A program made the translations under genes and the position numbers. A model generated the notes under the pieces. That model was not told where the DNA came from. It did not search any database and saw only the letters and a list, made by a program, of their open reading frames with translations. Below are positions 3,960-56,900 of a stretch of 64,000 bases of DNA, piece by piece (within the stretch, counting starts at the first letter, position 1; each line of letters starts with the position of its first letter). The stretch is from Candidatus Nomurabacteria bacterium (lineage in GTDB: Bacteria; Patescibacteriota; Minisyncoccia; Phycocordibacterales; JAACPR01). The stretch is from the NCBI GenBank assembly GCA_020632215.1, contig JACKFZ010000002.1:8701-72700 (forward strand). Reading direction: 5' to 3'.

Positions 3960-4886
3960 TCAAAACCACTTATTTCTCTTAAAAACTGCAAACATAGCCC
4001 CCGACACTACAACTGTAATAAACAACACTATCCAAAATCCATATTGATTATGCATAAAAGGAATAGGCACATTCATACCAAACAAACTAGAAATGATAGT
4101 TGGCACAGTCAAGATAATAGTTAGAGCAGTTAACAAACGAATCACTCTGTTCAAGTTGTTGGTCAAAATAGTTGAATAGGCATCACGAATATTTGTAATA
4201 TTTTTTAAGTTACTCTTACAAGTCTCGATCAACTGACTATTGAAAAGCTCATTGTCCTCAATTAAATCTTTGTCTGATTCATAAAGAGATATATATTTTC
4301 CACTAAGCAAAGAGTCCAAAGAAACATTGGTTGGCACTAAAGCTGATAAAAAATCATTCAGAGTAGACTCGAACTGAACAAAGCTGACTATTTCTCTGTT
4401 AGAAATAGTGCGAAAATCAACTGTCGCTTTTCTCACTCCCCTATTTATATTCTGCACAAATCTATTGTACGTATTATGAATCTCAGACATTATTAAGAAA
4501 AAAAGTTTTGTTTTCTGGGTAGTAGCATAGTTGACCTGACCTGACATAAACTTTTCAATAATAGTTGGAGACTCCTTTTGAAATAGAGTAAAAATGAATT
4601 TATCTCCAATGGCCATCAAAATGGGTCTGGTTGTCACTTGCCCGCTATCATCTGAATAAGGCATTCTAGTAAATATATAAGTAATTTTATTTTCTTTCTC
4701 AATTCTAGGAACCTCATTGGGGTCCATGGCATCACGCAAAAGATCTGCTTCAAGCTTCAATTCTTCAGATATTTTCTCTAGTTCATTAACAGAAGGATTT
4801 TCAGCAATAATCCAAGAACCGGTTTTAAGTTCTTCTAGTTCTGTTGGAACTTTTTCTTTGATTGTTTTGTGGAGAATTTTTAACAT
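3960..4886 (-). CDS. corA: CorA-family Mg2+/Co2+ transporter
   Basis: 308 aa. The C-terminus carries two TM helices and the GMN motif (FGMNVPIPF) followed by a basic tail, as is typical for CorA. Confidence 0.75.
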   Translation of the reverse strand: MLKILHKTIKEKVPTELEELKTGSWIIAENPSVNELEKISEELKLEADLLRDAMDPNEVPRIEKENKITYIFTRMPYSDDSGQVTTRPILMAIGDKFIFTLFQKESPTIIEKFMSGQVNYATTQKTKLFFLIMSEIHNTYNRFVQNINRGVRKATVDFRTISNREIVSFVQFESTLNDFLSALVPTNVSLDSLLSGKYISLYESDKDLIEDNELFNSQLIETCKSNLKNITNIRDAYSTILTNNLNRVIRLLTALTIILTVPTIISSLFGMNVPIPFMHNQYGFWIVLFITVVVSGAMFAVFKRNKWF

Positions 4887-15151: not shown

Positions 15152-15327
15152 ACTGATATTCTACCAACTGTATTAAATACTGCTACCAGCAATAGCTCAG
15201 CTCCTATTTATTTTAAATAATAGTAAAAATATGGCTAAAATTAATAGTTTTTTGCTTTATCGTGCCCCACATCTTCGGACTTGACTTTGTATTCAAAAAA
15301 TGCTACAATATTGTTATTAAAAGGTAA

Positions 15328-17118
15328 ATGAATTATATGAAAAAATTATCATTAGTATTATCAATAGTTGCACTAACAATTGCTTTTACGCCAGTAAACA
15401 AAGCTGAAGCTGCTCCAGAATGTACACTTACAGCTGATTCTAGCGCCGGAGAATATATTGTTAACTTTAGCGGTAAAACAATCTTTAGTAATGCAAGTCC
15501 TGGTTCTATTAAAACAGAAAATCTTAGTATTCCGGCCGGTACTTACAACCTAACTGCTGTAACATGGGATAACCATTCATCACACGGTGGTCAAGGACAA
15601 ACAGCAGAAAAAGTTAAGTTCATTGCCTCAAACAATGGGACAAAGCTTTTCACAACTTCAGCAACCAAAGACATCGCTGAGTCAAAAAACTTCCAAACAA
15701 CAACCTTTGGTTCGAGTTATACTGCAAACAATACAATCACTACTCTTGTAGCAACTCACGCTGCACGTGGTACAGGAAATTACCAAAGTGTTGTACCACT
15801 TTGTGTGAAATTTACACCAGTATCTACTCCCCCACCAAGTCCAGATGTACAAGTTTCTTGTGACGCTTCACCTTCATCAGTACAAACAGGTCAAACTGTA
15901 ACTTGGGATGCGGATGCTTCAGGTGGTAATGGTTCATATACTTACTCTTGGACTGGCGCTGTAACTAGCTCGAACGAATCCCCTACTTCATCATATAGTT
16001 CGACTGGAACAAAAACAGCTACTGTCACTGTAACATCTGGAGGGAAAACAGCTTCTGCTACATGTTCTGTAAATGTAAGCTCAACACCTTCTAATGATTT
16101 GCAAGTTTCTTGTGACGCTTCACCTTCATCAGTACAAACAGGTCAAACTGTAACTTGGGATGCGGATGCTTCAGGTGGTAATGGTTCATATACTTACTCT
16201 TGGTCATCTGGATCAAGTAATGAGCACTTTACAAACTCATACAGCTCAACTGGAACAAGAACTCAGACAGTTACAGTCACATCTGGCTCTCAAACAAAAT
16301 CAGCTACATGTTCTGTAAATGTAACAAACAACTCATCAAGTAGCTTTGATGTAACATGTAGAGCGAGTGATACTAGAATCGAAGAAGGTGACTCTGTAAC
16401 TTTTACAGCTGATGTTGATGGTGGTGACTCTCCTTTCGATTACGATTGGAACGGTGATATTTCTGGAGACAGCAGAAGTGAAACTGTTAGATTTACACGA
16501 AGTGGTAGATATGATGTAGAAGTGACAGTTACTGACGACAACGGACAAAGACGAACTGATAGCTGTCCTGTAATAGTAGTAGAAGATCCAGAAAACGATG
16601 ATCTGGATGTCGTCTGTAGAGTTTCAGATACTTCGATTAATTCAGGAGACAGAGTAACTTTTACAGCTGACGTTGATGGTGGTAATTCTCCTTACGACTA
16701 TGATTGGCGAGGTGATATATCTGGAAATGACAGAACAGAGAGCGTACGATTCAGCAGAGACGGTAGATACGAAGTAAGAGTTACTGTAGAAGATGATGAT
16801 GGTAATAGAGCTTCTGACACTTGTCCTGTAGTTCGAGTGACCAATGAAGTAACTACTGGTCAATATCTTTTAAACACTACTACTTTCTACGATAACCCTC
16901 CTTCTGCTCCTCTTTCATCATTAAGCTCAGTATATCTATCACAGATCCCTTATACAGGGGCAAAAGAAGTCCTAACAATTATTGGATACATTGCCCTAGT
17001 ATTTGTATGGAGCGCAGGAATACTATATTTCCTAGCAAGACGAAAAAGTAAGAAAGCAAAGACTAATAGTATCGAAGCATTCAAGAATGCAAACAAACAA
17101 GCAGTAGTTATCGAATAA
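15328..17118 (+). CDS. Secreted PKD/Ig-like repeat surface protein with C-terminal LPxTG-like (IPYTG) sorting signal
   Basis: Signal peptide MKKLSLVLSIVALTIAFTPVNKAEA. Two near-identical internal domains (DVQVSCDASPSSVQTGQTVTWDADASGGNGSYTYSW..., twice) and two further related domains (TFTADVDGG.SP.DYDW.GDISG). C-terminal IPYTG, then a hydrophobic helix, then RRKSKKAK. A strong terminator follows. Confidence 0.6.
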   Translation: MNYMKKLSLVLSIVALTIAFTPVNKAEAAPECTLTADSSAGEYIVNFSGKTIFSNASPGSIKTENLSIPAGTYNLTAVTWDNHSSHGGQGQTAEKVKFIASNNGTKLFTTSATKDIAESKNFQTTTFGSSYTANNTITTLVATHAARGTGNYQSVVPLCVKFTPVSTPPPSPDVQVSCDASPSSVQTGQTVTWDADASGGNGSYTYSWTGAVTSSNESPTSSYSSTGTKTATVTVTSGGKTASATCSVNVSSTPSNDLQVSCDASPSSVQTGQTVTWDADASGGNGSYTYSWSSGSSNEHFTNSYSSTGTRTQTVTVTSGSQTKSATCSVNVTNNSSSSFDVTCRASDTRIEEGDSVTFTADVDGGDSPFDYDWNGDISGDSRSETVRFTRSGRYDVEVTVTDDNGQRRTDSCPVIVVEDPENDDLDVVCRVSDTSINSGDRVTFTADVDGGNSPYDYDWRGDISGNDRTESVRFSRDGRYEVRVTVEDDDGNRASDTCPVVRVTNEVTTGQYLLNTTTFYDNPPSAPLSSLSSVYLSQIPYTGAKEVLTIIGYIALVFVWSAGILYFLARRKSKKAKTNSIEAFKNANKQAVVIE

Positions 17119-23930: not shown

Positions 23931-24323
23931 TTACCAAATTTCAAATAAAATTTCTCCACCCACTTTTGCTTTCTTCGCTTCTCGATCTGACATTACTCCT
24001 TGTGGTGTTGAGATAACAGATATCCCGTAATTATTCTTGACTGGGAAAATATCTTTTATTCCTTTGTAGATTCTTCTAGAGAATTTTGAAACTCTTCTAA
24101 CGCCGTGAATTGCAGGAACTCCAGCTTCATATTTTAGACTAACGTCTAAATGCTTTTTCACATCCTTACCCTTCACTTCAAAGTCAGAGATGAATCCTTC
24201 TTTTTTCAAAACAGAAAGAATATTTTCTTTTAGTTTTGAATAAGGCGCAGAAAAAATATCTTTCTTTCCTATAGAAGCATTCTTAAGGCCATTTATCAGA
24301 TTTGCAATTGGATCACCTACCAT
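23931..24323 (-). CDS. rpsH: 30S ribosomal protein S8
   Basis: [21 protein letters not shown]... is the S8 N-terminus. Confidence 0.9.
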
Positions 24324-24502
24324 GAAGATTTCTTTATTCCAGGGATTTTCCCGTCGTTAGCTAATTCTCTAAAACAAATTCGGCACATATCAAAATCTCG
24401 CATATATGCCTTTTTTCGACCACATTTAAAACATCTTCGAACCACTCGGCTCTTAAATTTTGGTGTGCGTGTAGCACGAACTTTTACTGATGTTTTTGCC
24501 AT
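24317..24502 (-). CDS. rpsZ: 30S ribosomal protein S14 type Z (zinc-binding)
   Basis: 61 aa with a CxxC...CxxC pattern ([20 protein letters not shown]). Confidence 0.9.
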
Positions 24503-24642
24503 GATTTATATGCTTCAAGCTATCTATTTTGCAACAAAAAAAGACTAAAAATTAGCCTGAATTTAAAAGCTAATAGCTTGTTTTAGCGTTGGCATATACT
24601 ATCAAGAGAGCCGCAGGAAGTCAATAGGATTTTGGGTTTAAC

Positions 24643-24876
24643 TTAAAGGGTTTTTTGGAAGAAAATCGGAAGTAGTAGATAGCATACTAAAACAACCCAC
24701 AACCATATCTCTTGAGGTTTACTTAGCAATGAAAAAACTATAAAAAATGCCTGCAGACCAACATAAACAAAATGATACCAGCCAATTAGGTTCAATTTTC
24801 TACTATTAGAAAACATCCAGTTATTTGAAGACTTAAAGCGATTGATATAAACAAAATAAATAGCCCAAATTACCAA
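24643..24876 (-). CDS. Small hydrophobic membrane ORF, hypothetical
   Basis: 77-aa hydrophobic ORF. The reading frame stays open further upstream without an ATG. It is part of the insertion between rplE and rpsZ. Confidence 0.25.
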   Translation of the reverse strand: MVIWAIYFVYINRFKSSNNWMFSNSRKLNLIGWYHFVYVGLQAFFIVFSLLSKPQEIWLWVVLVCYLLLPIFFQKTL

Positions 24877-25089
24877 GGCCAGAATTATACTTAGCCAGAT
24901 ATTATTCAGATTATTGAAAATACCATAATGAACAGCTAATCAAAAATAGGAAGAAATATAGTATCGCCAATAGCGCCAGTTAAGTTAGATGGAAAAGTAC
25001 CTTGTTTTTTATAAAAGTGAGTATAAGTCCAATATACAAATGGACTAACAAGCCAAGTCACTATTTACAGCTAATAATATATTCATAGA

Positions 25090-25320
25090 CTAAATATTCT
25101 TTCTCAACCTGTTATATTCGTCAACCGAAATATTGCAGTCATTCAAAATCTTTCTCAAAAGACCACGACTTATATCTGTTTTTTTCATTGGAATAACAGT
25201 GGTTCTTCCATCTTTGTGAGCAAGAAAAATATGAGATCCTTCTGCATCTCTTTCTTCAAAACCTAACTTTATCAATATTTTCTTGAGCTTTAATGGCTTT
25301 ATTAAAGCAAGTTTAGGCAT
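25090..25320 (-). CDS. hicA: HicA-family toxin (mRNA interferase, YcfA-like)
   Basis: KKILIKLGFEERDAEGSHIFLAHKDGRTTVIPMKKTDISRGLLRKILND matches the HicA G-SH...G..vtvP.H motif. It overlaps hicB by 8 nt. Confidence 0.75.
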   Translation of the reverse strand: MPKLALIKPLKLKKILIKLGFEERDAEGSHIFLAHKDGRTTVIPMKKTDISRGLLRKILNDCNISVDEYNRLRKNI

Positions 25321-25558
25321 TTTTTAGAGTAATATTTTGGATACCGACGAAGGTGTTTATTTTCGTTTTCTTTTGATTTCTCAAACAAAGCTTAGCAACT
25401 TGTTCTAGATTTTTTAACATCTCAACTTGAGTCTTACCCTCCGCATAGCAAGACTGAAGTGTGGGAATAGAACCGACAAAGACTCCGTCTTCGTCTTTTT
25501 CAATATAGACTACCAAGTTATTTAGCCTCTGTTTTTTCATTATTTCCGATATTAACAT
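25313..25558 (-). CDS. hicB: HicB-family antitoxin (UPF0150-like)
   Basis: YIEKDEDGVFVGSIPTLQSCYAEGKTQVEMLKNLEQVAKLCL fits the HicB N-domain pattern (EkdedGgy.v..Pdlpgc.tqGdT.eEA..na.eal). Confidence 0.65.
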   Translation of the reverse strand: MLISEIMKKQRLNNLVVYIEKDEDGVFVGSIPTLQSCYAEGKTQVEMLKNLEQVAKLCLRNQKKTKINTFVGIQNITLKNA

Positions 25559-25610
25559 AAATTATGAAGGAATTCTATTTTTAAAATAATCTGCAAACTA
25601 TAGCAAAATG

Positions 25611-25640
25611 AAAAAACCCAGCACCACACAGGGTGCTGGG
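25611..25640 (-). terminator. Rho-independent terminator after rplE
   Basis: The minus-strand transcript reads cccagcaccctgtgtggtgctggg followed by ttttttcatttt. It lies 15 nt after the rplE stop and separates rplE from the hicBA/rpsZ segment. Confidence 0.55.
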
Positions 25641-25654
25641 AAGAAATTAAAATC

Positions 25655-26191
25655 TTACTTCTTAAAAGGAAATCCCAACAACTTTAGAAAAGCTTCTGTT
25701 TCTACCTTAGTCTTTGAAGTAGTAACCACAGTTACTGCCATTCCAAAAACATCTTTTAGATCTTCGTCGGCTGTTTCAGGGAAAATAGTATTTTCTCTAA
25801 TGCCTAGAGTATAGTTACCCATCTCATCAACTCCTGACAAATTAATACCTCTAAAGTCTCTAGTTCGTGGCAAAGCAATATTTACTAGTCTATCTAGAAA
25901 ATCATACATTCTCTCCCCTCTTAGAGTCACTTGATATCCAGAAATCTGTCCTTCTCTCACCTTGAAGGTTGCAATTGATTTTTTAGCTGGTCGCAGTGAA
26001 GGTTTTTGTCCGGTGATAACTGCTAGTTTTTCTGGAATCAGTTCTACTTTTCTTTTATCAGTCTTGATTTTTCCAACACCTGTAGAAACAACAACCTTAG
26101 TTAGCCTAGGTGCTTGCATAACATTCTTATAGCTAAATTGATCTTTTAGTTTTTCAAATGCTTTCTTTTGTTTATCTTTTATTCTTTCCAT
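25655..26191 (-). CDS. rplE: 50S ribosomal protein L5
   Basis: MERIKDKQKKAFEKLKDQFSYKNVMQAPRLTKVVVSTGVG... is typical L5. Confidence 0.9.
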   Translation of the reverse strand: MERIKDKQKKAFEKLKDQFSYKNVMQAPRLTKVVVSTGVGKIKTDKRKVELIPEKLAVITGQKPSLRPAKKSIATFKVREGQISGYQVTLRGERMYDFLDRLVNIALPRTRDFRGINLSGVDEMGNYTLGIRENTIFPETADEDLKDVFGMAVTVVTTSKTKVETEAFLKLLGFPFKK

Positions 26192-29300: not shown

Positions 29301-29376
29301 CATAAAAAATATACAAAGCTCCAATGGAGCTTGGTGGCTGTATATACTAACAGATATCGTTTTAAAGTCAACAAAT

Positions 29377-29518: not shown

Positions 29519-30784
29519 ATGAATTACAAAAAAACTGTCTTAGACAATGGTCTACGGATTATCACTGTTCCAATGAAAGATTCTCAGACCAGTATAGCCA
29601 TGGTTCTGGTAGAAGCTGGCTCTCACTATGAAGATGAAAAAATTAATGGTCTTTCTCATTTCCTAGAGCATATGTGTTTTAAAGGTACTAAAAACCGCAC
29701 AGGTCATGAGATAAACAGTTATTTAGACTCTATAGGAGCAGAAGCCAATGCTTTTACTGGCTTTGAATATACTGGTTACTATGCCAAAGCTCATTTTAAA
29801 AAGATAAATAAAATATTAGATGTAGTTTCAGATATTTATCTAAACTCTACTTTTCCAGAAAAAGGTATTGAGCCAGAACGAGGAGTCATTATCGAGGAGA
29901 TAAATATGTATGAAGATTTGCCTCAAAGTCAGGTGTGGTATGAGTGGGTTAAACTTCTCTACCCTAACCAACCAGCAGGTAGAAGTATCTTAGGACCAAA
30001 AGAAAATATTAGAAGTTTTAAGCAAAAAGATTTCATAGACTATTACAAAAAACATTACATCGCAGAAAAAACTGTGGTCATTGTTGCTGGTAACATTGAT
30101 CAAAAAGAAGTCTTAAGAGATGTTAAAGAAAAATTTAAAAATATTCCTACTGGCAAAATAGTCAAAAAAGATAAAGTTAAAGAATACCAAAAAGCTCCTC
30201 AGATAAATGTTAGATACAAGAAAACTGATCAGACACACTTAGTTCTTGGTTTTCGAGCTTTTGATTTGAAGAATAAAAAGAATATGGCTCTGAAAGTTGC
30301 TTCTGTTGTTCTAGGAAAGGGCTTCAGCTCTCGCCTATTCAAGAGAATGAGGGATGAACTAGGAATGTGCTACTATACTCGCGCTTCTGCCGAAGCCTTA
30401 ACAGATCATGGATATTTCACTGTCTCTGCTGGTGTAACAAATAGCAGAGTAGAGGAAGCTATAGAAGTGATTGTAGATGAATTTAAGAGATTAAGAGATG
30501 AACTAATATCTGATGAAGAGATAAAGAAAGCTAAAGACTTTGCCATTGGTCACACTGCTATTGGTCTTGAAACTTCTGATGCTATAGCTGACTTCTATGG
30601 TTTCCAAGAACTTCAACACGAAGAGATCAAGAATCCTAAGGATAAGATAAGAAAGTTAAAAGAAGTGACATCCAAAGATGTTCAGAAAGTTATACAAGAG
30701 ATTGTAAAGAATGATAGATTGAATCTAGCACTGATTGGTCCATTTAAAGAAAATAAGAAGTTTAAAAAGATTTTGAAGGTATAA
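29519..30784 (+). CDS. M16-family (pitrilysin/insulinase-like) zinc peptidase
   Basis: The inverted zincin motif HFLEHM (HxxEH) near the N-terminus. About 420 aa with M16 N- and C-domains. Plus strand inside a minus-strand operon. Confidence 0.7.
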   Translation: MNYKKTVLDNGLRIITVPMKDSQTSIAMVLVEAGSHYEDEKINGLSHFLEHMCFKGTKNRTGHEINSYLDSIGAEANAFTGFEYTGYYAKAHFKKINKILDVVSDIYLNSTFPEKGIEPERGVIIEEINMYEDLPQSQVWYEWVKLLYPNQPAGRSILGPKENIRSFKQKDFIDYYKKHYIAEKTVVIVAGNIDQKEVLRDVKEKFKNIPTGKIVKKDKVKEYQKAPQINVRYKKTDQTHLVLGFRAFDLKNKKNMALKVASVVLGKGFSSRLFKRMRDELGMCYYTRASAEALTDHGYFTVSAGVTNSRVEEAIEVIVDEFKRLRDELISDEEIKKAKDFAIGHTAIGLETSDAIADFYGFQELQHEEIKNPKDKIRKLKEVTSKDVQKVIQEIVKNDRLNLALIGPFKENKKFKKILKV

Positions 30785-30792
30785 GTTAAAAA

Positions 30793-31263
30793 CTATTTTA
30801 GAGAAATTTGTTGTATGTCAACTTCTATCGCTTCTGGATCAATAATAAAACGATCTACACCTTCTTTGTCTGGTACAAGATGTAAATGAAGATGGACAGG
30901 TTTGTAATAAGTTGACCCATTTTCCACAGAATCAAATCTAGTTCGAATCATCAAAACAAATTGATCTACATTACTACCACTATCTTGTTTTATTCCCAAA
31001 GATAAGAAGTGCTTTATTATCCTTTTATAAAATATTTGCAAATCTTCAAGCTCCTCAATTTTTAAATCTGTAAAGTCAGATATATGTCTCTTGGGAATCA
31101 ACATGGTATGAAACTTCCAATATGGAGATAGATTTGCAATCCATACCCAATAATCTGATTCGCCTAATACTATTTGTTTACCTAAATCACAAAGAGGACA
31201 ATACCCGTCTGAAAAACTTTTTACAAGTTCTTCATATTCTTTTCTTGAAAGTAATTTATTCAT
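30793..31263 (-). CDS. HIT-family (histidine triad) protein
   Basis: VHLHLHLVP is the HxHxHxx histidine-triad motif. A CxxC pair lies near the N-terminus. Confidence 0.65.
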   Translation of the reverse strand: MNKLLSRKEYEELVKSFSDGYCPLCDLGKQIVLGESDYWVWIANLSPYWKFHTMLIPKRHISDFTDLKIEELEDLQIFYKRIIKHFLSLGIKQDSGSNVDQFVLMIRTRFDSVENGSTYYKPVHLHLHLVPDKEGVDRFIIDPEAIEVDIQQISLK

Positions 31264-31420: not shown

Positions 31421-31450
31421 AAAAAAGCCGAGCATTGCTCGGCTTTTTTT
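31421..31450. terminator. Bidirectional intrinsic terminator downstream of rplB
   Basis: aaaaaagccgagcattgctcggcttttttt is a perfect GC-rich stem with A/T runs on both sides. Confidence 0.75.
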
Positions 31451-44984: not shown

Positions 44985-47900
44985 TTACTGAGCGGTGCTT
45001 AGATTGTCACTATTTTGACTTGTTTGCTCAGTATTAGAATCTACTGGCTCTGTTACCGTAGGTTCAATAACCTCCTCAACAGGTGTTGTTTCATCTACAA
45101 CTGGCTCTGGTTCAGATGCTGGAGCTGGGTCTGTTACTTGCTCTTCTATAACAGGATTTTCCTCAACAGGTGTTGTTTCATCTACAACTGGCTCTGGTTC
45201 AGATACTGGAGCCGGGTCACTGGAAGAATCACCACTATCATCGATCAAAGTGTTTTGCAAAGTAGAACTAGTAACATCTTCAGGTGCAGTTCCACACTCT
45301 CCATTCCTTGTCACAGTCATTCCGTTCTTAATACTTAGACAATATGGTTCACCTGTTTCTTCATCATACAAAGTGATACCTGTAGGTTTTTCTGGAGAAC
45401 CAACAGTTAGTTTTTGGAAGACACTAACAACTGATGAGTAGCTATTGTTAGCAATATCTTGTACTTGTTCTGATAATGCTTGAATCTTAGTATTTAATTC
45501 TTTAATTGCAGAAATAATATATGGAATAAATCCACCATAAGATACTGATTTCAAATGCTCTCCATCAGGTGATGTTTTTACTAATTCTGGGAAAATACTT
45601 TCTACTTCTTGTGCAATTAGACCAATTCTCTTTTCGTTGTTTTCATCTGTCTTCCATTCAAATTCTACCGGTTTCAAATCTACAAATTTTGCCAAGATAT
45701 CTTGAGAGGAAAGTTCTGTGATTTCCTCTTTCAATCTTTGGTCTGATGTACAAATCCATGAAGCATCGCTTGGGTCTATTTCACAGTACGCATTTGCATC
45801 TTGGAATCTAACAGGTGAACCACTTGTTGCATGGAATACATGCAATGGTCGTACAGGTGAAGTGGTACCAACTCCAATATAGCCAGAATCACTTATAAAT
45901 ATGGATGTGTTTGACCCAGAATTTATTCCAAAACTTCCACTTGAAGTAATACCGTCTAAATCAAATGTGATTGTGTTTGTGGCATTTCCAAGAATGATAT
46001 TCCCATCTACCGCCAAATCATCGCCGACCGCTAGATTTCCAGCAAAGCTTGAGGTGTTTGTGGCATTTATTACTAATGCACCTCCAAATACTGATGTTGT
46101 TGAACCAACTCGTAAAGAGTCGACCACTGCACGGCCAGTTACATCTAGAGAATTTGCAAATGAAACATTTCCATTCTCATCCAACACAATTGAAGGAGTA
46201 GATGTTGGGGCGCTCAACAAATTGATTCTTTGACCAATTTCTTGAATAGCGTTTACTGTAACAGCTGCAATGTTTCCGTAAGAAATTCCCTTCTTTCCGT
46301 CTTCTCCATGAACAAGTTCTGGCAAGACACCTTCCAATTCTTGCGCCACGAATCCGATTGTCTCTATATATATGTCTTCTCCGAGTTCGTTTTGACCAGC
46401 TTTTATCTTATATCGTCGAGGTATTAAGTCCATAATCTCTGTTAGACCATAGTTCAAATTGACAATATCGCTTTTAATAGAAACATCAGAAGCGTTGGTC
46501 CATTCTCCTGCAGCATTCAAGGTTGCTGTGTTTCCTGCTCCACCTTCAAAGTTTAGAACTTGAGAAGTATTCATATAAATTGCGCGGTAATCTCCATCTG
46601 AGGCCTCTAGGTAAATTCCGCCAGACGCATCATTTGAAGACTGAGTAATGGCCAAAGCACTACTTGGTGATGATGTACCAATTCCAACACCCCCTGACAA
46701 ATAGTAAATATCGCTTCCTGATTGAGCCCAGAAGCTTCCGCTAGAGTCTCCCCCAATAGCAAAGTAAAATTCATCACCTTTTCCAGATGAGTTTGAACTT
46801 GCACTACTTGAGTTGATTCTTAAATTAAACCCATATGCTGTTTGGGATTCATCATCAAGTGGCGCAAAGACACGATCGCTGGCAACTGACCAACTTGTTT
46901 GGACTGATCCTAAAATAGCGTAGTTTGCAGAATCCATTGGGTCTTCAAAGTTAATCCAGTATCGACCTGTGGCAATTTCGGCGACACTATTTACATTTGA
47001 GCTACCAAATATAGCAGTTCTTTCCAAAGTCACATTTCCAGAAGTTGTTCCTGAAGTACCATGAGTAACTGTGAAGGTATTTGCATCTGCAACACTTGTA
47101 ACTGTGAATAATCCATCGGCAGCTGCACCAGTAGTGAAGTTCAAGTAAACTTTATGGCCCACAATATGTCCGTGTGCAGTTGCAGTGACAGTCACAGTAG
47201 TACCTGATCTTGAATATGTACCAGAAAGATCATCATCGGTCGGTCCATTAACATAAGCCCAAGTACTTGTCGCAGAATTTAAGGCGGAAATATCGGCTTC
47301 AAGCGCAACAATTTTGTCATAGATTGCATTTTTGGAAGCGGCACCAGTGTCGCTATCCCAACCCACACCAAAGGCGGTATCGGAAGGAACAATTGGAATC
47401 CAAGACCCTCCGCTGTCTTTGGCTTCAACGACTCCAGAGTTGTCTCGGACTCCATATCCGGTTGATCCAAAAGTGCTTCCAAAGTTTAGATAAGAAGGTC
47501 CAAGTTGTGCATAAGATGCACCATCAGTAAAAGATAAGTTTGTTGAAAGCAAGTCAAACTGATTACTTCCGCTATTAAGCGCGATGCTGTTGTAATTTAA
47601 ATCCAGACCATTACCACTATTCACCGTCTGAACAACAGAAATATCATCATAAACCGTCAAAGTTTTTCCTGTCTGCAGAGTGCTTGCGTTCAAACCAATT
47701 CCAACTTGATTTGCACTGGCATCAACAAACAGACCATGACTAGCGCCAGTTGCCTCCCATCTGAAATCTTCCGTAGTTCCACCAGATTCGTTTCCAACAA
47801 GACCAACTGATGTAGAGAAAGTTAACCCAGCATCGTCTGTTAATGTGTCGGCATCACTTGCAAAAGGAACTCTTCCTGCAGTCAAAGTTCCATCGATACC

Positions 47901-50900
47901 ACCAGAGCTTGCCGCCCACTGAACACCCGTTCCGGTTGACTGAAGAACATAACCACTTGTTCCAAGAGAGGCATTGTTATCGTAAAGTCCTCCAGTCAAA
48001 GCGAAGTCTCCATCAACAGAAAGTGTGGCATACGGAGTCGATGTTCCAACTCCGACTTTTGCTGTTTCAGAACCATTATCTCCTTTAACAACAAAAACTT
48101 CATTATTTAAGACTGATGCTGTAGAGTTATAAATGACAAAATTTACACCGTTAGTATTTATATCAGAGCCTACAGTTAATACATCGGTGATTTGACCTGC
48201 ACCATCATTATTACCAACAACAAAAGCTCTAGTTTGATTGTCTGATTCAACGGCTAAATCACCTGAAGGTGTAGTTGTACCAATTCCAGTAAATCCTGAA
48301 TACCCGCTAATAGTAAACACTGGATAATTTGTTGGTCCCTCCGCTCTTATTGCAGCCTGAAAGATAGGGTTTGTTTGATTGTCAGTACCGACAACAGAGA
48401 ATCTAGCATAAGGACTTGTTGTTCCGACACCTACATGCCCTGCATTATCAGCAAGAAAGATCGTGTCATACTCTGGATCAGCAGAAAATGGTATAGATAA
48501 TAAGAACAGATCATTGGCCTCTGTACCTTCAACTGCCAACGTAGTAGAAACAGTACTTGTTCCAATTCCAAAATAATTATTTGTTGCATCCCAATAAAAA
48601 TCGCCCTTATCTTGAGCCAGATTTCCTGACCCATCAATAAACAAAACCGCACCAGGATCTCCTGAACCAATAGAATCTCCAATTGAGATTGACCCGGATG
48701 ACGCACCCCAAGTTGGAAGTCCACCAGATACAGATAGAACTTGTCCACTTGTTCCAATAGGAAGTTTAGCCAATGAATTTGAACCATCAGCATAAAGAAT
48801 ATCTCCGGCTGTATAAGTTGTAATTCCTGTACCACCATAAACCTCTCCTATAGCACTTCCATTCCATGTACCACTAGTAATAGTTCCTACGGTTGCAAGT
48901 GAAGAAGCACTTGTGAGATTAGCTAAGGTATCAATAGCAGATTCAATAGTAGATTCTGTTGTGGCGTCTAAACTATCAATATTCAGAATTGACGTATTCC
49001 CACCACTATCATAAATAATAGCTGAACTATTGACACTTAGGTAACCATTTGCATCAAGGTTAATTGAATAAACACCATCAATAGAATCTAGATCAGATAT
49101 TGTGATTCCAGAATTTTTAATAATTTTCCCAGTTGTCCCATTAAATCTCACTATTGCATTATTGGTTGCACTAGCTGGGCCACTAACATCTCCACTACCA
49201 CTAGCAACATCTTGCCAAGTTGGTGCTGTCCCTGTTCCATTTGAGGTTAATGTTTGACCACTTGTTCCAAAGAGACCATTCAGTGTTAGATAATTTGTTG
49301 TATTGAAGTTTGTTGTTGTTGCATTAGTAAAGACTCCTGTTGAAGCTGATGAAATACCTATTGGTGTATTATTAATTGTTCCACCTGATATAGTTAGATC
49401 ATTTGCAACATATGTATCAGCAACTGCTGTACCTTGCCATACACCAGTTCCAATAGTTCCAACCGTTGAAAGATTAGCCAAAGTTGTAATGTTTGGAAGT
49501 GTTGTTGTAGCACTTAGTCTGTTATCGAATCTTGTGTTGGTGAAGTAGAGATTGGTTGAACCTTCACTTAAAGCATCAGTGTCTGTTGCATTGAAGAAGT
49601 TGTAGAAAGGAATACCGAAGCTTGTGAGATTTGTGGCATCTAAGTAGTAACTTCCCTCTTGTCCATCGAATGTTCCTGTCCAGTTGCCTGTGGCGTCTAG
49701 AGTAATAGCTTCACCTACACAGTTAATACCTGTTCCTTCAACATCAGAACAATCAAATGATAATGTGTCATCTGTTAAATCAACACCTGTGCTGACTGCT
49801 AGGTTAGTGTTAGCACTAATGTCGATAGTGTCATTGTTAGTAAAGACATTAGTAACACCTGTTAGGAATGATTCAAGTGAGCTTTCGGTATTGTTGTTCC
49901 AGATTGTAGTTGAAGCATTGATGTAATCTGCAACGTCTGTGTCTGTGTAATGAGTTAGATCTGAGATTTGGCTTTCTGTGATTGAAAGATTAGCCAAAGT
50001 TGTAATGTTTGGAAGTGTTGTTGTAGCACTTAGTCTGTTATCGAATCTTGTGTTGGTGAAGTAGAGATTAGTTGAACCTTCACTTAAAGCATCAGTGTCT
50101 GTTGCATTGAAGAAGTTGTAGAAAGGAATACCGAAGCTTGTGAGATTTGTGGCATCTAAGTAGTAACTTCCCTCTTGTCCATCGAATGTTCCTGTCCAGT
50201 TGCCTGTGGCGTCTAGAGTAATAGCTTCACCTACACAGTTAATACCTGTTCCTTCAACATCAGAACAATCAAATGATAATGTGTCATCTGTTAAATCAAC
50301 ACCTGTGCTGACTGCTAGGTTAGTGTTAGCACTAATGTCGATAGTGTCATTGTTAGTAAAGACATTAGTAACACCTGTTAGGAATGATTCAAGTGAGCTT
50401 TCGGTATTGTTGTTCCAGATTGTAGTTGAAGCATTGATGTAATCTGCAACGTCTGTGTCTGTGTAATGAGTTAGATCTGAGATTTGGCTTTCTGTGATTG
50501 AAAGATTAGCCAAAGTTGTAATGTTTGGAAGTGTTGTTGTAGCACTTAGTCTGTTATCGAATCTTGTGTTGGTGAAGTAGAGATTAGTTGAACCTTCACT
50601 TAAAGCATCAGTGTCTGTTGCATTGAAGAAGTTGTAGAAAGGAATACCGAAGCTTGTGAGATTTGTGGCATCTAAGTAGTAACTTCCCTCTTGTCCATCG
50701 AATGTTCCTGTCCAGTTGCCTGTGGCGTCTAGAGTAATAGCTTCACCTACACAGTTAATACCTGTTCCTTCAACATCAGAACAATCAAATGATAATGTGT
50801 CATCTGTTAAATCAACACCTGTGCTGACTGCTAGGTTAGTGTTAGCACTAATGTCGATAGTGTCATTGTTAGTAAAGACATTAGTAACACCTGTTAGGAA

Positions 50901-53900
50901 TGATTCAAGTGAGCTTTCGGTATTGTTGTTCCAGATTGTAGTTGAAGCATTGATGTAATCTGCAACGTCTGTGTCTGTGTAATGAGTTAGATCTGAGATT
51001 TGGCTTTCTGTGATTGAAAGATTAGCCAAAGTTGTAATGTTTGGAAGTGTTGTTGTAGCACTTAGTCTGTTATCGAATCTTGTGTTGGTGAAGTAGAGAT
51101 TAGTTGAACCTTCACTTAAAGCATCAGTGTCTGTTGCATTGAAGAAGTTGTAGAAAGGAATACCGAAGCTTGTGAGATTTGTGGCATCTAAGTAGTAACT
51201 TCCCTCTTGTCCATCGAATGTTCCTGTCCAGTTGCCTGTGGCGTCTAGAGTAATAGCTTCACCTACACAGTTAATACCTGTTCCTTCAACATCAGAACAA
51301 TCAAATGATAATGTGTCATCTGTTAAATCAACACCTGTGCTGACTGCTAGGTTAGTGTTAGCACTAATGTCGATAGTGTCATTGTTAGTAAAGACATTAG
51401 TAACACCTGTTAGGAATGATTCAAGTGAGCTTTCGGTATTGTTGTTCCAGATTGTAGTTGAAGCATTGATGTAATCTGCAACGTCTGTGTCTGTGTAATG
51501 AGTTAGATCTGAGATTTGGCTTTCTGTGATTGAAAGATTAGCCAAAGTTGTAATGTTTGGAAGTGTTGTTGTAGCACTTAGTCTGTTATCGAATCTTGTG
51601 TTGGTGAAGTAGAGATTAGTTGAACCTTCACTTAAAGCATCAGTGTCTGTTGCATTGAAGAAGTTGTAGAAAGGAATACCGAAGCTTGTGAGATTTGTGG
51701 CATCTAAGTAGTAACTTCCCTCTTGTCCATCGAATGTTCCTGTCCAGTTGCCTGTGGCGTCTAGAGTAATAGCTTCACCTACACAGTTAATACCTGTTCC
51801 TTCAACATCAGAACAATCAAATGATAATGTGTCATCTGTTAAATCAACACCTGTGCTGACTGCTAGGTTAGTGTTAGCACTAATGTCGATAGTGTCATTG
51901 TTAGTAAAGACATTAGTAACACCTGTTAGGAATGATTCAAGTGAGCTTTCGGTATTGTTGTTCCAGATTGTAGTTGAAGCATTGATGTAATCTGCAACGT
52001 CTGTGTCTGTGTAATGAGTTAGATCTGAGATTTGGCTTTCTGTGATTGAAAGATTAGCCAAAGTTGTAATGTTTGGAAGTGTTGTTGTAGCACTTAGTCT
52101 GTTATCGAATCTTGTGTTGGTGAAGTAGAGATTAGTTGAACCTTCACTTAAAGCATCAGTGTCTGTTGCATTGAAGAAGTTGTAGAAAGGAATACCGAAG
52201 CTTGTGAGATTTGTGGCATCTAAGTAGTAACTTCCCTCTTGTCCATCGAATGTTCCTGTCCAGTTGCCTGTGGCGTCTAGAGTAATAGCTTCACCTACAC
52301 AGTTAATACCTGTTCCTTCAACATCAGAACAATCAAATGATAATGTGTCATCTGTTAAATCAACACCTGTGCTGACTGCTAGGTTAGTGTTAGCACTAAT
52401 GTCGATAGTGTCATTGTTAGTAAAGACATTAGTAACACCTGTTAGGAATGATTCAAGTGAGCTTTCGGTATTGTTGTTCCAGATTGTAGTTGAAGCATTG
52501 ATGTAATCTGCAACGTCTGTGTCTGTGTAATGAGTTAGATCTGAGATTTGGCTTTCTGTGATTGAAAGATTAGCCAAAGTTGTAATGTTTGGAAGTGTTG
52601 TTGTAGCACTTAGTCTGTTATCGAATCTTGTGTTGGTGAAGTAGAGATTAGTTGAACCTTCACTTAAAGCATCAGTGTCTGTTGCATTGAAGAAGTTGTA
52701 GAAAGGAATACCGAAGCTTGTGAGATTTGTGGCATCTAAGTAGTAACTTCCCTCTTGTCCATCGAATGTTCCTGTCCAGTTGCCTGTGGCGTCTAGAGTA
52801 ATAGCTTCACCTACACAGTTAATACCTGTTCCTTCAACATCAGAACAATCAAATGATAATGTGTCATCTGTTAAATCAACACCTGTGCTGACTGCTAGGT
52901 TAGTGTTAGCACTAATGTCGATAGTGTCATTGTTAGTAAAGACATTAGTAACACCTGTTAGGAATGATTCAAGTGAGCTTTCGGTATTGTTGTTCCAGAT
53001 TGTAGTTGAAGCATTGATGTAATCTGCAACGTCTGTGTCTGTGTAATGAGTTAGATCTGAGATTTGGCTTTCTGTGATTGAAAGATTAGCCAAAGTTGTA
53101 ATGTTTGGAAGTGTTGTTGTAGCACTTAGTCTGTTATCGAATCTTGTGTTGGTGAAGTAGAGATTAGTTGAACCTTCACTTAAAGCATCAGTGTCTGTTG
53201 CATTGAAGAAGTTGTAGAAAGGAATACCGAAGCTTGTGAGATTTGTGGCATCTAAGTAGTAACTTCCCTCTTGTCCATCGAATGTTCCTGTCCAGTTGCC
53301 TGTGGCGTCTAGAGTAATAGCTTCACCTACACAGTTAATACCTGTTCCTTCAACATCAGAACAATCAAATGATAATGTGTCATCTGTTAAATCAACACCT
53401 GTGCTGACTGCTAGGTTAGTGTTAGCACTAATGTCGATAGTGTCATTGTTAGTAAAGACATTAGTAACACCTGTTAGGAATGATTCAAGTGAGCTTTCGG
53501 TATTGTTGTTCCAGATTGTAGTTGAAGCATTGATGTAATCTGCAACGTCTGTGTCTGTGTAATGAGTTAGATCTGAGATTTGGCTTTCTGTGATTGAAAG
53601 ATTAGCCAAAGTTGTAATGTTTGGAAGTGTTGTTGTAGCACTTAGTCTGTTATCGAATCTTGTGTTGGTGAAGTAGAGATTAGTTGAACCTTCACTTAAA
53701 GCATCAGTGTCTGTTGCATTGAAGAAGTTGTAGAAAGGAATACCGAAGCTTGTGAGATTTGTGGCATCTAAGTAGTAACTTCCCTCTTGTCCATCGAATG
53801 TTCCTGTCCAGTTGCCTGTGGCGTCTAGAGTAATAGCTTCACCTACACAGTTAATACCTGTTCCTTCAACATCAGAACAATCAAATGATAATGTGTCATC

Positions 53901-56900
53901 TGTTAAATCAACACCTGTGCTGACTGCTAGGTTAGTGTTAGCACTAATGTCGATAGTGTCATTGTTAGTAAAGACATTAGTAACACCTGTTAGGAATGAT
54001 TCAAGTGAGCTTTCGGTATTGTTGTTCCAGATTGTAGTTGAAGCATTGATGTAATCTGCAACGTCTGTGTCTGTGTAATGAGTTAGATCTGAGATTTGGC
54101 TTTCTGTGATTGAAAGATTAGCCAAAGTTGTAATGTTTGGAAGTGTTGTTGTAGCACTTAGTCTGTTATCGAATCTTGTGTTGGTGAAGTAGAGATTAGT
54201 TGAACCTTCACTTAAAGCATCAGTGTCTGTTGCATTGAAGAAGTTGTAGAAAGGAATACCGAAGCTTGTGAGATTTGTGGCATCTAAGTAGTAACTTCCC
54301 TCTTGTCCATCGAATGTTCCTGTCCAGTTGCCTGTGGCGTCTAGAGTAATAGCTTCACCTACACAGTTAATACCTGTTCCTTCAACATCAGAACAATCAA
54401 ATGATAATGTGTCATCTGTTAAATCAACACCTGTGCTGACTGCTAGGTTAGTGTTAGCACTAATGTCGATAGTGTCATTGTTAGTAAAGACATTAGTAAC
54501 ACCTGTTAGGAATGATTCAAGTGAGCTTTCGGTATTGTTGTTCCAGATTGTAGTTGAAGCATTGATGTAATCTGCAACGTCTGTGTCTGTGTAATGAGTT
54601 AGATCTGAGATTTGGCTTTCTGTGATTGAAAGATTAGCCAAAGTTGTAATGTTTGGAAGTGTTGTTGTAGCACTTAGTCTGTTATCGAATCTTGTGTTGG
54701 TGAAGTAGAGATTAGTTGAACCTTCACTTAAAGCATCAGTGTCTGTTGCATTGAAGAAGTTGTAGAAAGGAATACCGAAGCTTGTGAGATTTGTGGCATC
54801 TAAGTAGTAACTTCCCTCTTGTCCATCGAATGTTCCTGTCCAGTTGCCTGTGGCGTCTAGAGTAATAGCTTCACCTACACAGTTAATACCTGTTCCTTCA
54901 ACATCAGAACAATCAAATGATAATGTGTCATCTGTTAAATCAACACCTGTGCTGACTGCTAGGTTAGTGTTAGCACTAATGTCGATAGTGTCATTGTTAG
55001 TAAAGACATTAGTAACACCTGTTAGGAATGATTCAAGTGAGCTTTCGGTATTGTTGTTCCAGATTGTAGTTGAAGCATTGATGTAATCTGCAACGTCTGT
55101 GTCTGTGTAATGAGTTAGATCTGAGATTTGGCTTTCTGTGATTGAAAGATTAGCCAAAGTTGTAATGTTTGGAAGTGTTGTTGTAGCACTTAGTCTGTTA
55201 TCGAATCTTGTGTTGGTGAAGTAGAGATTAGTTGAACCTTCACTTAAAGCATCAGTGTCTGTTGCATTGAAGAAGTTGTAGAAAGGAATACCGAAGCTTG
55301 TGAGATTTGTGGCATCTAAGTAGTAACTTCCCTCTTGTCCATCGAATGTTCCTGTCCAGTTGCCTGTGGCGTCTAGAGTTAGTGCACCGCTTGAGATTGT
55401 TAGACCTGAACCTGTGAGGTCTGTTACGTATTCCGAGTTAATTCCAAATGTGTCTGTGTAGAAGGTGGTTGAGGTTGCACCAGTAACTGTAATGTCATCA
55501 AAAAGAGAATCCCCAATAACCTCTAAGATATACCCTGATGATGTTGTCGCACTACCACCTACAATAACAACATCAGATGTGTCATCTGGGTATATGGCTA
55601 GATTATCTGTGGTCGTTGCCCAAACTCCAGATCCTCCACCTCCTCCTGTTGAATCAGCTCCCCAAGTCGGCACACCTCCAGAAACTTTCAAAACTTGACC
55701 GCTAGACCCTATAGGCAACTTAGCTAATGAATTGGCACCATCAGCATAAAGAATATCACCCGTCGTGTATGTTGTAATTCCAGTGCCACCATAGACTTCT
55801 CCTATAACACTTCCATTCCACACACCACTTGTAATAGTTCCTATAGTAGCAAGTGAAGAAGCAGATGTTAGATTAGATAAGGTATCAATAGCAGATTCAA
55901 TAGTAGATTCTGTTGTGGTATCTAGTGCATCAATGTTTGAGAGAGTAGCTGTTCCTGCTGAGTCAGTAATAATAGATGTTCCAGCTATTGTTAAACTTCC
56001 ACTTGTATTTAGATCTACAGATGCTACACCATCTATGTTATTTGAATCATCTATGGTGATTCCTGAATTTTGAATGGTTGTTCCTGTTATTCCGTTAAAT
56101 CTTACTATTGCGTTATCTGTAGCTCCAATTGGACCTGAGACATTGCCAGCTCCTGAGGGAGTTGCCCAAGTTCCATCTCCTCGCCAAAATGTTGCACTTG
56201 ATGCTCCGGTTCCTGAGCCTAAGTTTGTGACAGGAAGATTTCCACTAACATCACTTGCCAAATCAACCTGATCCAGAGTAATTTGTTGTCCTGATAATGT
56301 GAGGTAATCATAAGAGCCTGCAAGTGTGACTGGATCATGTGAAGAAATACCTAGAGATGATGTGGCTACCGTGTCCCATCTACTACCTGTCCAGTACAGC
56401 ACATCTCCATATGCACTACCTGCTTCGTGTGCAATTGTAGTTGAAGCATTGATATATGAAGCAACTCTTGCATCTGTAAAATACAAATTGGTACCTCCTT
56501 CACTTAGAGCATCTGTAGTAGTACCTGCAAGATGACCTGCAAAGTCTGTAATTGTGTAGTGATCTAGATTACTGATTTGAGATTCAGTGATTGAAAGATT
56601 AGGTAGTGCTGTGATTGAAGCAACAGATGATGTGGCAGCCAAGCTTGAAGTGAATCTGTTTTCTGTGTAGTAGAAGTTGTTTGATCCTTCACTTAGAGCG
56701 TCTGTGGTTGTGGCATACCAGTTTGCAAGTGATAGATAGTTTGAAGCTGTTATGTTGTCGTCTATGTATGCATCGCCGATTGAAGTCCCATTCCACACAC
56801 CTGAAGTAATAGTACCTACTGTGGAAAGATTAGGAAGAGCAGTTAGCGTACCAACTGATGATGTTGCATTGATTCGTGCATCTGCTCTGGCATTGGTGAA

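Follow-up and report, generated by a model that had tools for sequence, protein, structure and literature searches.

Toxin-antitoxin (TA) systems of the HicAB type have been characterised in E. coli (6HPB), Yersinia pestis (HicA3B3, 4P78) and Burkholderia pseudomallei (6G26), in which a PF07927 toxin with a G-S-H motif is paired with a HicB partner of N-terminal beta-beta-beta-alpha fold and the two are encoded by overlapping genes of a bicistronic unit. Such systems have been reported to be frequent in ultra-small groundwater prokaryotes (PMC9938205). The canonical spc operon of ribosomal-protein genes has the order rplN-rplX-rplE-rpsN/Z-rpsH-rplF... in E. coli and Bacillus. The same gene order is kept in a 64-kb stretch of a Candidatus Nomurabacteria genome (contig JACKFZ010000002.1; the whole stretch is hereafter referred to as the window), and a hicB–hicA pair resembling the above systems lies there between rplE and rpsZ. 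This pair is likely a selfish, mobile type II hicBA cassette which landed, or was retained, in a permissive intergenic hotspot present lineage-wide at an operon boundary. Searches of open-access papers brought up none in which TA modules in the spc operon, rplE|rpsZ as a hotspot or the ribosomal-cluster breakpoints discussed below are described.

The hicBA pair and the stretch that holds it

The distance from rplE to rpsZ is 1,152 nucleotides (nt; 24503..25654), and the genes of this part of the window all lie on the minus strand. rplE is the final gene of an upstream rpsS–rplE transcription unit and rpsZ the opening gene of a downstream unit, rpsZ-rpsH-rplF...; in the stretch between them, a strong terminator hairpin is followed by a hicB–hicA pair that is intact and by hydrophobic open reading frames (ORFs). 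From upstream to downstream, the features are:

25655..26191, minus strand: rplE (ribosomal protein L5; Pfam Ribosomal_L5 E = 2e-18, Ribosomal_L5_C E = 5e-31)
25617..25640, minus strand: hairpin resembling an intrinsic terminator, with T6 at 25616..25611 (consensus scan and RNA folding)
25549..25557, minus strand: putative cassette-borne extended -10 promoter element TGTTAATAT, which precedes the hicB ATG at 25540 by 8 nt
25313..25540, minus strand: hicB antitoxin, 75 amino acids (aa); the frame is open up to ATG 25558, which would give 81 aa
25090..25320, minus strand: hicA toxin, 76 aa (PF07927, PDB 1WHZ)
24643..25086, minus strand: pseudogene of a multi-pass membrane protein of ~155 aa, with frameshifts near 25065–25061 and 24945–24939
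24596..24624, minus strand: putative rpsZ promoter TTGACT-N14-TGATAGTAT (consensus scan)
24317..24502, minus strand: rpsZ (61-aa zinc-ribbon S14; PF00253 E = 1e-21, with CxxC...CxxC visible in the translation)

The toxin was readily identified. It matches HicA_toxin PF07927 over profile positions 4–58 of 58, scoring 50.8 bits where the cut-off is 27 (E = 1.8e-13), as a first-pass annotation made from the sequence had anticipated, and the solved HicA-like structure 1WHZ over residues 9–72 (E = 1.3e-9). All residues invariant in its clade are retained, including G28-S29-H30; G28 and H30 do not vary across 27 aligned sequences, one of which is 1WHZ. The histidine of the G-x-H motif is reportedly catalytic in B. 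pseudomallei HicA (H24, in work ascribed to Butt et al. 2014), and by analogy the protein is most likely a ribosome-independent mRNA endoribonuclease with its catalytic histidine in G-S-H. The NCBI annotation reads HicA family toxin, 'Candidatus Nomurabacteria bacterium'. HicA and HicB have more than 140 homologs each, and the source names, where given, belong nearly all to Patescibacteria lineages. It was also observed that an otherwise conserved histidine at position 46 is replaced in the nearest HicA clade, the window protein included (P-x-H-N to P-M-K-K).

The identity of the antitoxin draws on several sources. The window protein itself stays below the cut-offs of both Pfam families, UPF0150 (PF21748; 24.5–24.7 against 27.3) and HicB_lk (PF15919; 17.4–17.7 against 27), whereas a 64% identical homolog (P0142) passes both (29.2 and 28.1, respectively) and many other HicB homologs carry PF15919 and PF21748. 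A profile built from 33 HicB sequences matches the UPF0150 structure 2YZT with E = 7e-6. In an AlphaFold2 (AF2) model, three strands (E12-15, E21-24, E32-35) are followed by a helix (H38-58), with a predicted local distance difference test score (pLDDT) of 78–86 in the core and 68 on average. The best Foldseek matches of this model in the PDB are the HicB structures 4P78, 6G1C, 6G26, 4P7D, 6U0I and 6HPB, with probabilities of 0.99–1.00 and a root mean square deviation mostly of 1.0–1.7 A over ~48 residues, although the E-values are modest (6e-3 to 0.3), the domain being so short. As modelled, HicB has the N-terminal beta-beta-beta-alpha (partial RNase H-like) toxin-binding fold. The assignment of the two ORFs to a HicB–HicA type II pair, proposed at first pass, is therefore supported by the PF07927 match, the domains of the homologs, the 2YZT profile match and the AF2/Foldseek comparison; the HicB profile hit expected for the window protein itself did not reach the Pfam cut-offs, and its place is taken by the homologs, the profile search and the fold. 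Two cysteines, C31 and C52 in the numbering of the 75-aa protein, are invariant in the clade of short HicBs.

An ORF starting at ATG 25558 and ending at 25313 had been taken as hicB. The ORF is present, and its start is more likely the second ATG, 25540, which is favoured because ATG 25558 lies inside the putative -10 element; NCBI also starts the gene at 25540, and the resulting 75-aa protein (P0121) is called 'HicB family antitoxin' there. hicB overlaps hicA by 8 nt (ATGCCTAA), the hicA ATG overlapping the hicB stop codon. A C-terminal DNA-binding domain is usual in the studied HicBs, although it is not universal in the family. No such domain of the ribbon-helix-helix (RHH) or helix-turn-helix (HTH) type was detected in the 75-aa HicB, in which residues 59–75 are modelled with low confidence and match no domain; the toxin-binding domain is thus all that this HicB has. 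Lacking it, HicB is unlikely to repress its own promoter and probably does not autorepress in the manner of the characterised HicBs.

Downstream of hicA, the small hydrophobic ORF at 24876..24643 noted at first pass does exist, and it proved to be a fragment within the pseudogene 25086..24643 and not a gene. A phmmer search of the full library with the frame 24646..24939 returned 11 homologs, mostly of 150–173 aa and aligned over their residues ~52–149, the best with E = 4.6e-11; nothing was returned when the conceptually repaired protein was used in a word-indexed search, so that only the exhaustive HMMER search gave homologs, and the protein matches no Pfam family. With tblastn, homolog residues 9–53 were placed in frame -3 (25061..24939), where the motif GAIGDTIFLPIF is found, and residues 51–158 in frame -2 (24939..24637). 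Residues 1–8 (MNILLAV against MDVILAV) were read directly in the third frame, from an ATG at 25086 that lies three nt past the hicA stop codon. An intact homolog elsewhere adjoins a YqgF-like gene, in an unrelated context. It was also considered whether the hydrophobic ORF belongs to the module as its third gene or encodes a type I-like toxin; both ideas were rejected, since the ORF is the C-terminal two-thirds of the frameshifted ~155-aa gene.

The arrangement could in principle be spurious, namely an assembly chimera or a sequencing artefact that joined unrelated DNA between rplE and rpsZ or created the frameshifts; the source is a metagenome-assembled genome and one of the two frameshifts adjoins a T-run. 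However, the exact HicA protein occurs on contigs of five or more independent assemblies, each obtained from a different sequencing run, whose nucleotides are 100% identical to the window over the part that each covers, both frameshifts included where covered; the two frameshifts are identical in three independent assemblies, and the gene arrangement of the window recurs in a sixth sample. An artefact is effectively refuted already, and its probability is negligible. The 1.15-kb insert with a HicB–HicA pair and a hairpin, as reported at first pass, is thus confirmed by Pfam, folding and the independent assemblies. Exact-protein look-ups of L5 and S14 gave the same arrangement only, with no empty-site allele or closer relative.

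The sequence was also inspected for traces of the insertion itself. The guanine plus cytosine (GC) content of the insert (0.29–0.33) is only slightly lower than that of the flanks (0.33–0.38), and composition is therefore uninformative on a foreign origin. Only short, imperfect repeats at chance level were found, with no terminal inverted repeats or target duplications flanking the insert, and neither the ORF list nor Pfam revealed a transposase or integrase ORF in 24503..25654; an insertion sequence, transposon or integrative element was rejected on these grounds. The 64-kb window has no hicBA paralogs elsewhere, no tRNA gene by ARAGORN and no Rfam family at the gathering threshold, the spacer giving only matches with E >= 0.75. 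A structured RNA or ribosomal-protein leader in the spacer was likewise rejected, there being no Rfam match and no significant fold of the rpsZ leader (z = -0.97).

The rplE|rpsZ junction in related genomes

Loci with relatives of rplE, 160 in number, were fetched from reference genomes and metagenomes; the non-redundant set comprises 97 Paceibacteria-like loci, defined by an L5 identity of 55% or more, and 58 loci of other bacteria. The record titles of the close loci name the Paceibacterota/Parcubacteria groups Zambryski-, Campbell-, Adler-, Kaiser-, Nomura-, Giovannoni- and Vogelbacteria. In the two large collections searched, the best relatives have an L5 69–74% identical to that of the window, the closest (locus L092, 74%) having a spacer of ~195 nt between rplE and rpsZ; in two others (L006 and L007) the spacers are 80–82 nt and hold no hicBA. 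No HicA or HicB was found by tblastn in any of the 160 related rplE loci, these three included, and the synteny comparison suggested at first pass hence places hicBA at this junction in the present species alone among the loci compared. The median spacers of four successive junctions are as follows:

rplX to rplE: 10 nt in the Paceibacteria-like loci, 28 nt in other bacteria
rplE to rpsZ: 546 nt in the Paceibacteria-like loci (interquartile range 179–1204; 37/60 above 300 nt), 18 nt in other bacteria
rpsZ to rpsH: 3 nt in the Paceibacteria-like loci, 25 nt in other bacteria
rpsH to rplF: -5 nt in the Paceibacteria-like loci, 6 nt in other bacteria

In another 12 Paceibacteria-like loci, rpsZ is missing from at least the first 1 kb after rplE.

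The hairpin after rplE in the window has a stem of 9 base pairs, 7 of them GC, followed by T6, and begins 14 nt past the rplE stop codon. It folds with a free energy (dG) of -17.9 kcal/mol (z = -4.5; 0/200 shuffles as stable) and fits the definition of an intrinsic terminator, a GC-rich stem with U6 downstream of a stop codon, from which terminator activity is predicted. Terminator-like hairpins with a T-run occur within 90 nt after rplE in 41/88 Paceibacteria loci, whereas shuffled windows give 1.3 on average and 6 at most; the same scan found them after four other genes in at most 5% of the loci (4/84, 1/58, 1/56 and 1/49) and after rplE in none of 58 other bacteria. The closest relative, L092, has no hicBA and still has the hairpin. 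A terminator directly after rplE had been described correctly at first pass but as part of the insert, and an origin with the TA cassette was rejected, as the hairpin is lineage-wide and the cassettes resemble one another from no more than ~20 nt upstream of hicB onwards.

A similar picture emerged for the promoter. The pattern TTGACW-N14-TGNTANNAT has two exact matches in the 64 kb against 0.05 expected, one of them being the rpsZ promoter candidate. In insert-free relatives TTGACA-N14-TGnTAnnAT is kept upstream of rpsZ in spacers as short as 47–195 nt, often followed by AACGCTTTT. A relaxed form of the motif lies within 150 nt upstream of rpsZ in 22/60 loci and in 0 of 55–90 upstream of rplX, rplE, rpsH and rplF. 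The motif is thus native to the lineage, with or without cargo, and would give rpsZ a promoter of its own. The suggestion that the insert provides the promoter of rpsZ was discarded for this reason: the same motif is present in relatives that lack the insert, and the promoter prediction proposed as a check points to the native TTGACT-N14-TGATAGTAT rather than to a site within the cassette. Since hairpin and promoter motif are both lineage-wide, they form the native frame of the gap and were not brought by the insert.

Three observations on these motifs may be added. The other exact match of TTGACW-N14-TGNTANNAT in the window (15281..15309, plus strand) lies 19 nt upstream of a 596-aa ORF (15328..17118). 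An AACGC(TTTT) element occurs a few nt past the rpsZ -10, at 24584..24590 in the window and in the leaders of L006, L007, L092, L103, L117 and L031, a position corresponding to the transcription start or early leader of rpsZ. Upstream of rpsZ in L022 (~4440–4540) and L129 (~4670–4770), an apparently stem-forming leader is shared, GAAATAG[TC]GATTGGAAGC...AGCTAACCAATCCC, which could be a candidate unannotated ribosomal-protein leader.

Scanning the ORFs of 37 bounded rplE|rpsZ gaps against Pfam showed that the cargo is non-homologous between lineages and rich in selfish elements. It includes the following (coordinates are those of the respective loci):

L040, 4541-5008: MazF/PemK toxin
L028, 4537-5199 and 6058-6318: YafQ/ParE toxin with partner, plus a GIY-YIG-like ORF
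L103: ParD
L050: Phd/YefM
L032, 4709-5062: DUF559 endonuclease-like protein
One relative: IS200-type transposase
L038, 5846-7230: pair resembling a diversity-generating retroelement (DGR), bAvd and probably a reverse transcriptase

Other cargo consists of transporters (MFS and EamA), proteins that bind peptidoglycan and several without an assigned function. In two loci the cluster is rearranged exactly at the rplE breakpoint, rplE being followed by rplJ-rplL in L009 (4945-5941) and by fusA in L055 (4635-6860).

The cassette had been described as lying inside a core operon; the spacer lengths and the hairpins identify rplE|rpsZ as an operon boundary across the Paceibacteria. The variable junction and its non-homologous cargo are best accommodated by the other idea offered at first pass, a tolerated insertion hotspot. 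The same cargo could be read as that of a preferred integration site for defence and mobile elements, at which HicBA would be kept for abortive infection or phage defence: MazF, YafQ/ParE, ParD, Phd, DUF559, the IS200 transposase and the bAvd–reverse transcriptase pair would all be at home there, as would HicAB in view of its frequency in groundwater prokaryotes. However, neither HicA nor HicB matches a PADLOC-DB defence model at E <= 0.01; much of the cargo, from the transporters and peptidoglycan-binding proteins to rplJ-rplL or fusA, is unrelated to defence; and the site has no integrase, att-like repeats or tRNA. A defence hotspot is therefore considered unlikely.

Mobility of the cassette and its relation to the ribosomal genes

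HicA homologs with 77–86% identity are found in eight unrelated, non-ribosomal neighbourhoods, which include dnaE/rnhB, NUDIX, FtsH, RecG, a periplasmic binding protein and the DNA polymerase III gamma subunit. A partner gene of 74–98 aa lies upstream in all eight, with an 8-nt overlap wherever the end of the contig spares the partner. Nucleotide similarity to the window extends from at most ~20 nt upstream of ATG 25540 through the hicA stop codon. The cassette is mobile: its homologs occupy eight contexts and the similarity is confined to the ORFs and a short upstream stretch. In 7/8 of the other loci compared, the hicB ATG is preceded at a distance of 7–11 nt by a TGnTAnnAT-like element, and the retention of an extended -10 in so short a similar stretch argues for a cassette-borne promoter and for the hicB start at 25540. 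The cassette is thereby predicted to have its own promoter and to give a leaderless or near-leaderless hicBA mRNA.

The following scheme is proposed. The S10–spc cluster of the Paceibacteria (Parcubacteria), to which this genome belongs, is split at rplE|rpsZ, with a predicted terminator after rplE and a conserved promoter motif before rpsZ, and the stretch between the two varies freely by lineage in both length and content. In the present species this stretch holds the intact hicBA and the remnant of a twice-frameshifted membrane gene, which would be passenger DNA with no operon function. From its own extended -10, the cassette is most likely transcribed into a leaderless or near-leaderless bicistronic mRNA, as judged from the family, in which the 8-nt overlap would couple the translation of hicA to that of hicB. 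The 75-aa HicB would keep HicA inactive, and loss of the labile HicB would free the toxin. On the upstream side, the rplE terminator would insulate the cassette. The consensus scan found no terminator-like site between hicA and rpsZ, and some read-through past hicA into the pseudogene and the rpsZ unit is therefore likely; the rpsZ unit would retain its own native promoter nevertheless.

Such read-through bears on the proposal, made at first pass, that TA regulation is coupled to ribosomal-protein expression. The module would have been recruited so that the synthesis of ribosomal proteins is tied to mRNA cleavage under stress or to the transcription of the module, either by read-through that drives or modulates rpsZ-rpsH-rplF or by HicA targeting these mRNAs. 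In addition to the missing terminator, the intact state of the cassette, its fixation in all sampled genomes and the recurrence of other TA modules at the junction in relatives would fit this. However, rpsZ has a strong predicted native promoter, conserved in relatives without any insert; the short HicB has no promoter-regulating DNA-binding domain; close relatives of the cassette reside in eight unrelated contexts; hicBA is at this site in none of the relatives; and heterogeneous cargo occupies the site, a decaying gene among it. Nothing in the data specifically favours the coupling, which is very improbable.

Some points weigh against the interpretation as a selfish passenger in a permissive gap. 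All assemblies of the species that were compared at the base level share one fixed arrangement without a base difference, which is compatible with selection, although a fixed arrangement is equally expected from TA addiction or from the sampling of one clone. Next to a decayed gene, hicBA has stayed intact, which suggests that the cassette is being maintained. TA modules are found at the junction in at least four other lineages, and this could mean more than neutral tolerance. Neither flanking repeats nor a transposase that would point to a mechanism of arrival were found; with the closest relative at only 74% L5 identity, the age of the insertion is poorly bounded; and with no terminator between hicA and the rpsZ unit, transcriptional read-through into the ribosomal genes is plausible. 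A mobile hicBA cassette in a lineage-wide gap is still preferred, given its homologs in unrelated contexts and a junction that varies with or without it.

A second breakpoint and comparison with described systems

The rplE|rpsZ gap is not the only one in the cluster. Between rplB and rpsS, the window contains:

31421..31449: bidirectional terminator hairpin, following rplB
30793..31263, minus strand: ORF with a HIT domain
29519..30784, plus strand: M16 peptidase, in the opposite orientation
29371..29344: promoter-like TTGACT-16-(TG)TAGTAT, preceding rpsS

rplB is absent upstream of rpsS in 37/49 of the Paceibacteria loci that have at least 400 nt there, against 1/35 in other bacteria, and in 8/12 of the Paceibacteria loci that do have it the gap exceeds 300 nt, while the junctions from rpsS to rplN are all tight. 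Thus, rplB|rpsS is an operon boundary across the Paceibacteria, like rplE|rpsZ. It may be speculated that the two breakpoints, each framed by a terminator and a conserved promoter, accrete selfish and accessory genes (TA modules, homing-endonuclease-like genes, IS200, DGRs) across the lineage and retain TA modules of the HicBA kind preferentially, possibly because essential, highly expressed neighbours shield them from deletion or because read-through couples them to ribosome synthesis; this generalisation is regarded as unlikely. Elsewhere in the window, a single giant ORF of 4,785 aa occupies 44985..59342 on the minus strand.

The insert is of little weight in itself, being a standard and already annotated HicBA whose short-HicB clade is common in Patescibacteria. 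The more useful by-product of the analysis is the division of the S10–spc cluster into three blocks, rpsJ–rplB, rpsS–rplE and rpsZ onwards, in a large class of ultra-small bacteria. Binning and phylogeny based on syntenic blocks of ribosomal proteins should anticipate the two gaps, and the consensus TTGACA-N14-TGnTAnnAT aids the prediction of operons and promoters in uncultivated lineages. The two gaps are also easily located sites in which to search for lineage-specific accessory and selfish genes.

Compared with the characterised HicAB systems, the present pair has the toxin motif, the antitoxin fold and the gene overlap in common. It differs in the gene order, hicB-hicA here against hicA-hicB in E. 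coli, and in its mRNA, which the putative promoter suggests to be leaderless. The characterised HicBs are proteins of 135–145 aa with a C-terminal RHH/HTH domain, whereas the HicB described here has 75 aa and lacks the domain, and autoregulation by DNA binding is not expected. The closest solved relatives by sequence are the Thermus thermophilus proteins TTHA1913 (1WHZ), TTHA1756 (2YZT) and TTHA0281 (2DSY). The short UPF0150 proteins of Thermus are, like the window HicB, of a single domain and ~67–87 aa; however, the identity is only ~25–33%, the Thermus entries stem from structural genomics and lack functional tests, and the window protein belongs to a clade dominated by Patescibacteria with invariant residues of its own, C31 and C52 among them.

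With the defence islands and accessory-gene hotspots of cultivated bacteria, the gap shares core-gene flanks around non-homologous cargo as well as the presence of TA modules and selfish elements; it differs in lacking an integrase, a tRNA gene and att repeats, in being flanked by ribosomal-protein genes and in the small size of its cargo (0–4 kb). The cluster itself resembles the canonical spc operon of E. coli and Bacillus in gene order and in the tightness of the other junctions (medians of at most 11 nt), and departs from it in being cut, in the Paceibacteria, at rplE|rpsZ and at rplB|rpsS by a terminator–promoter pair enclosing variable cargo.

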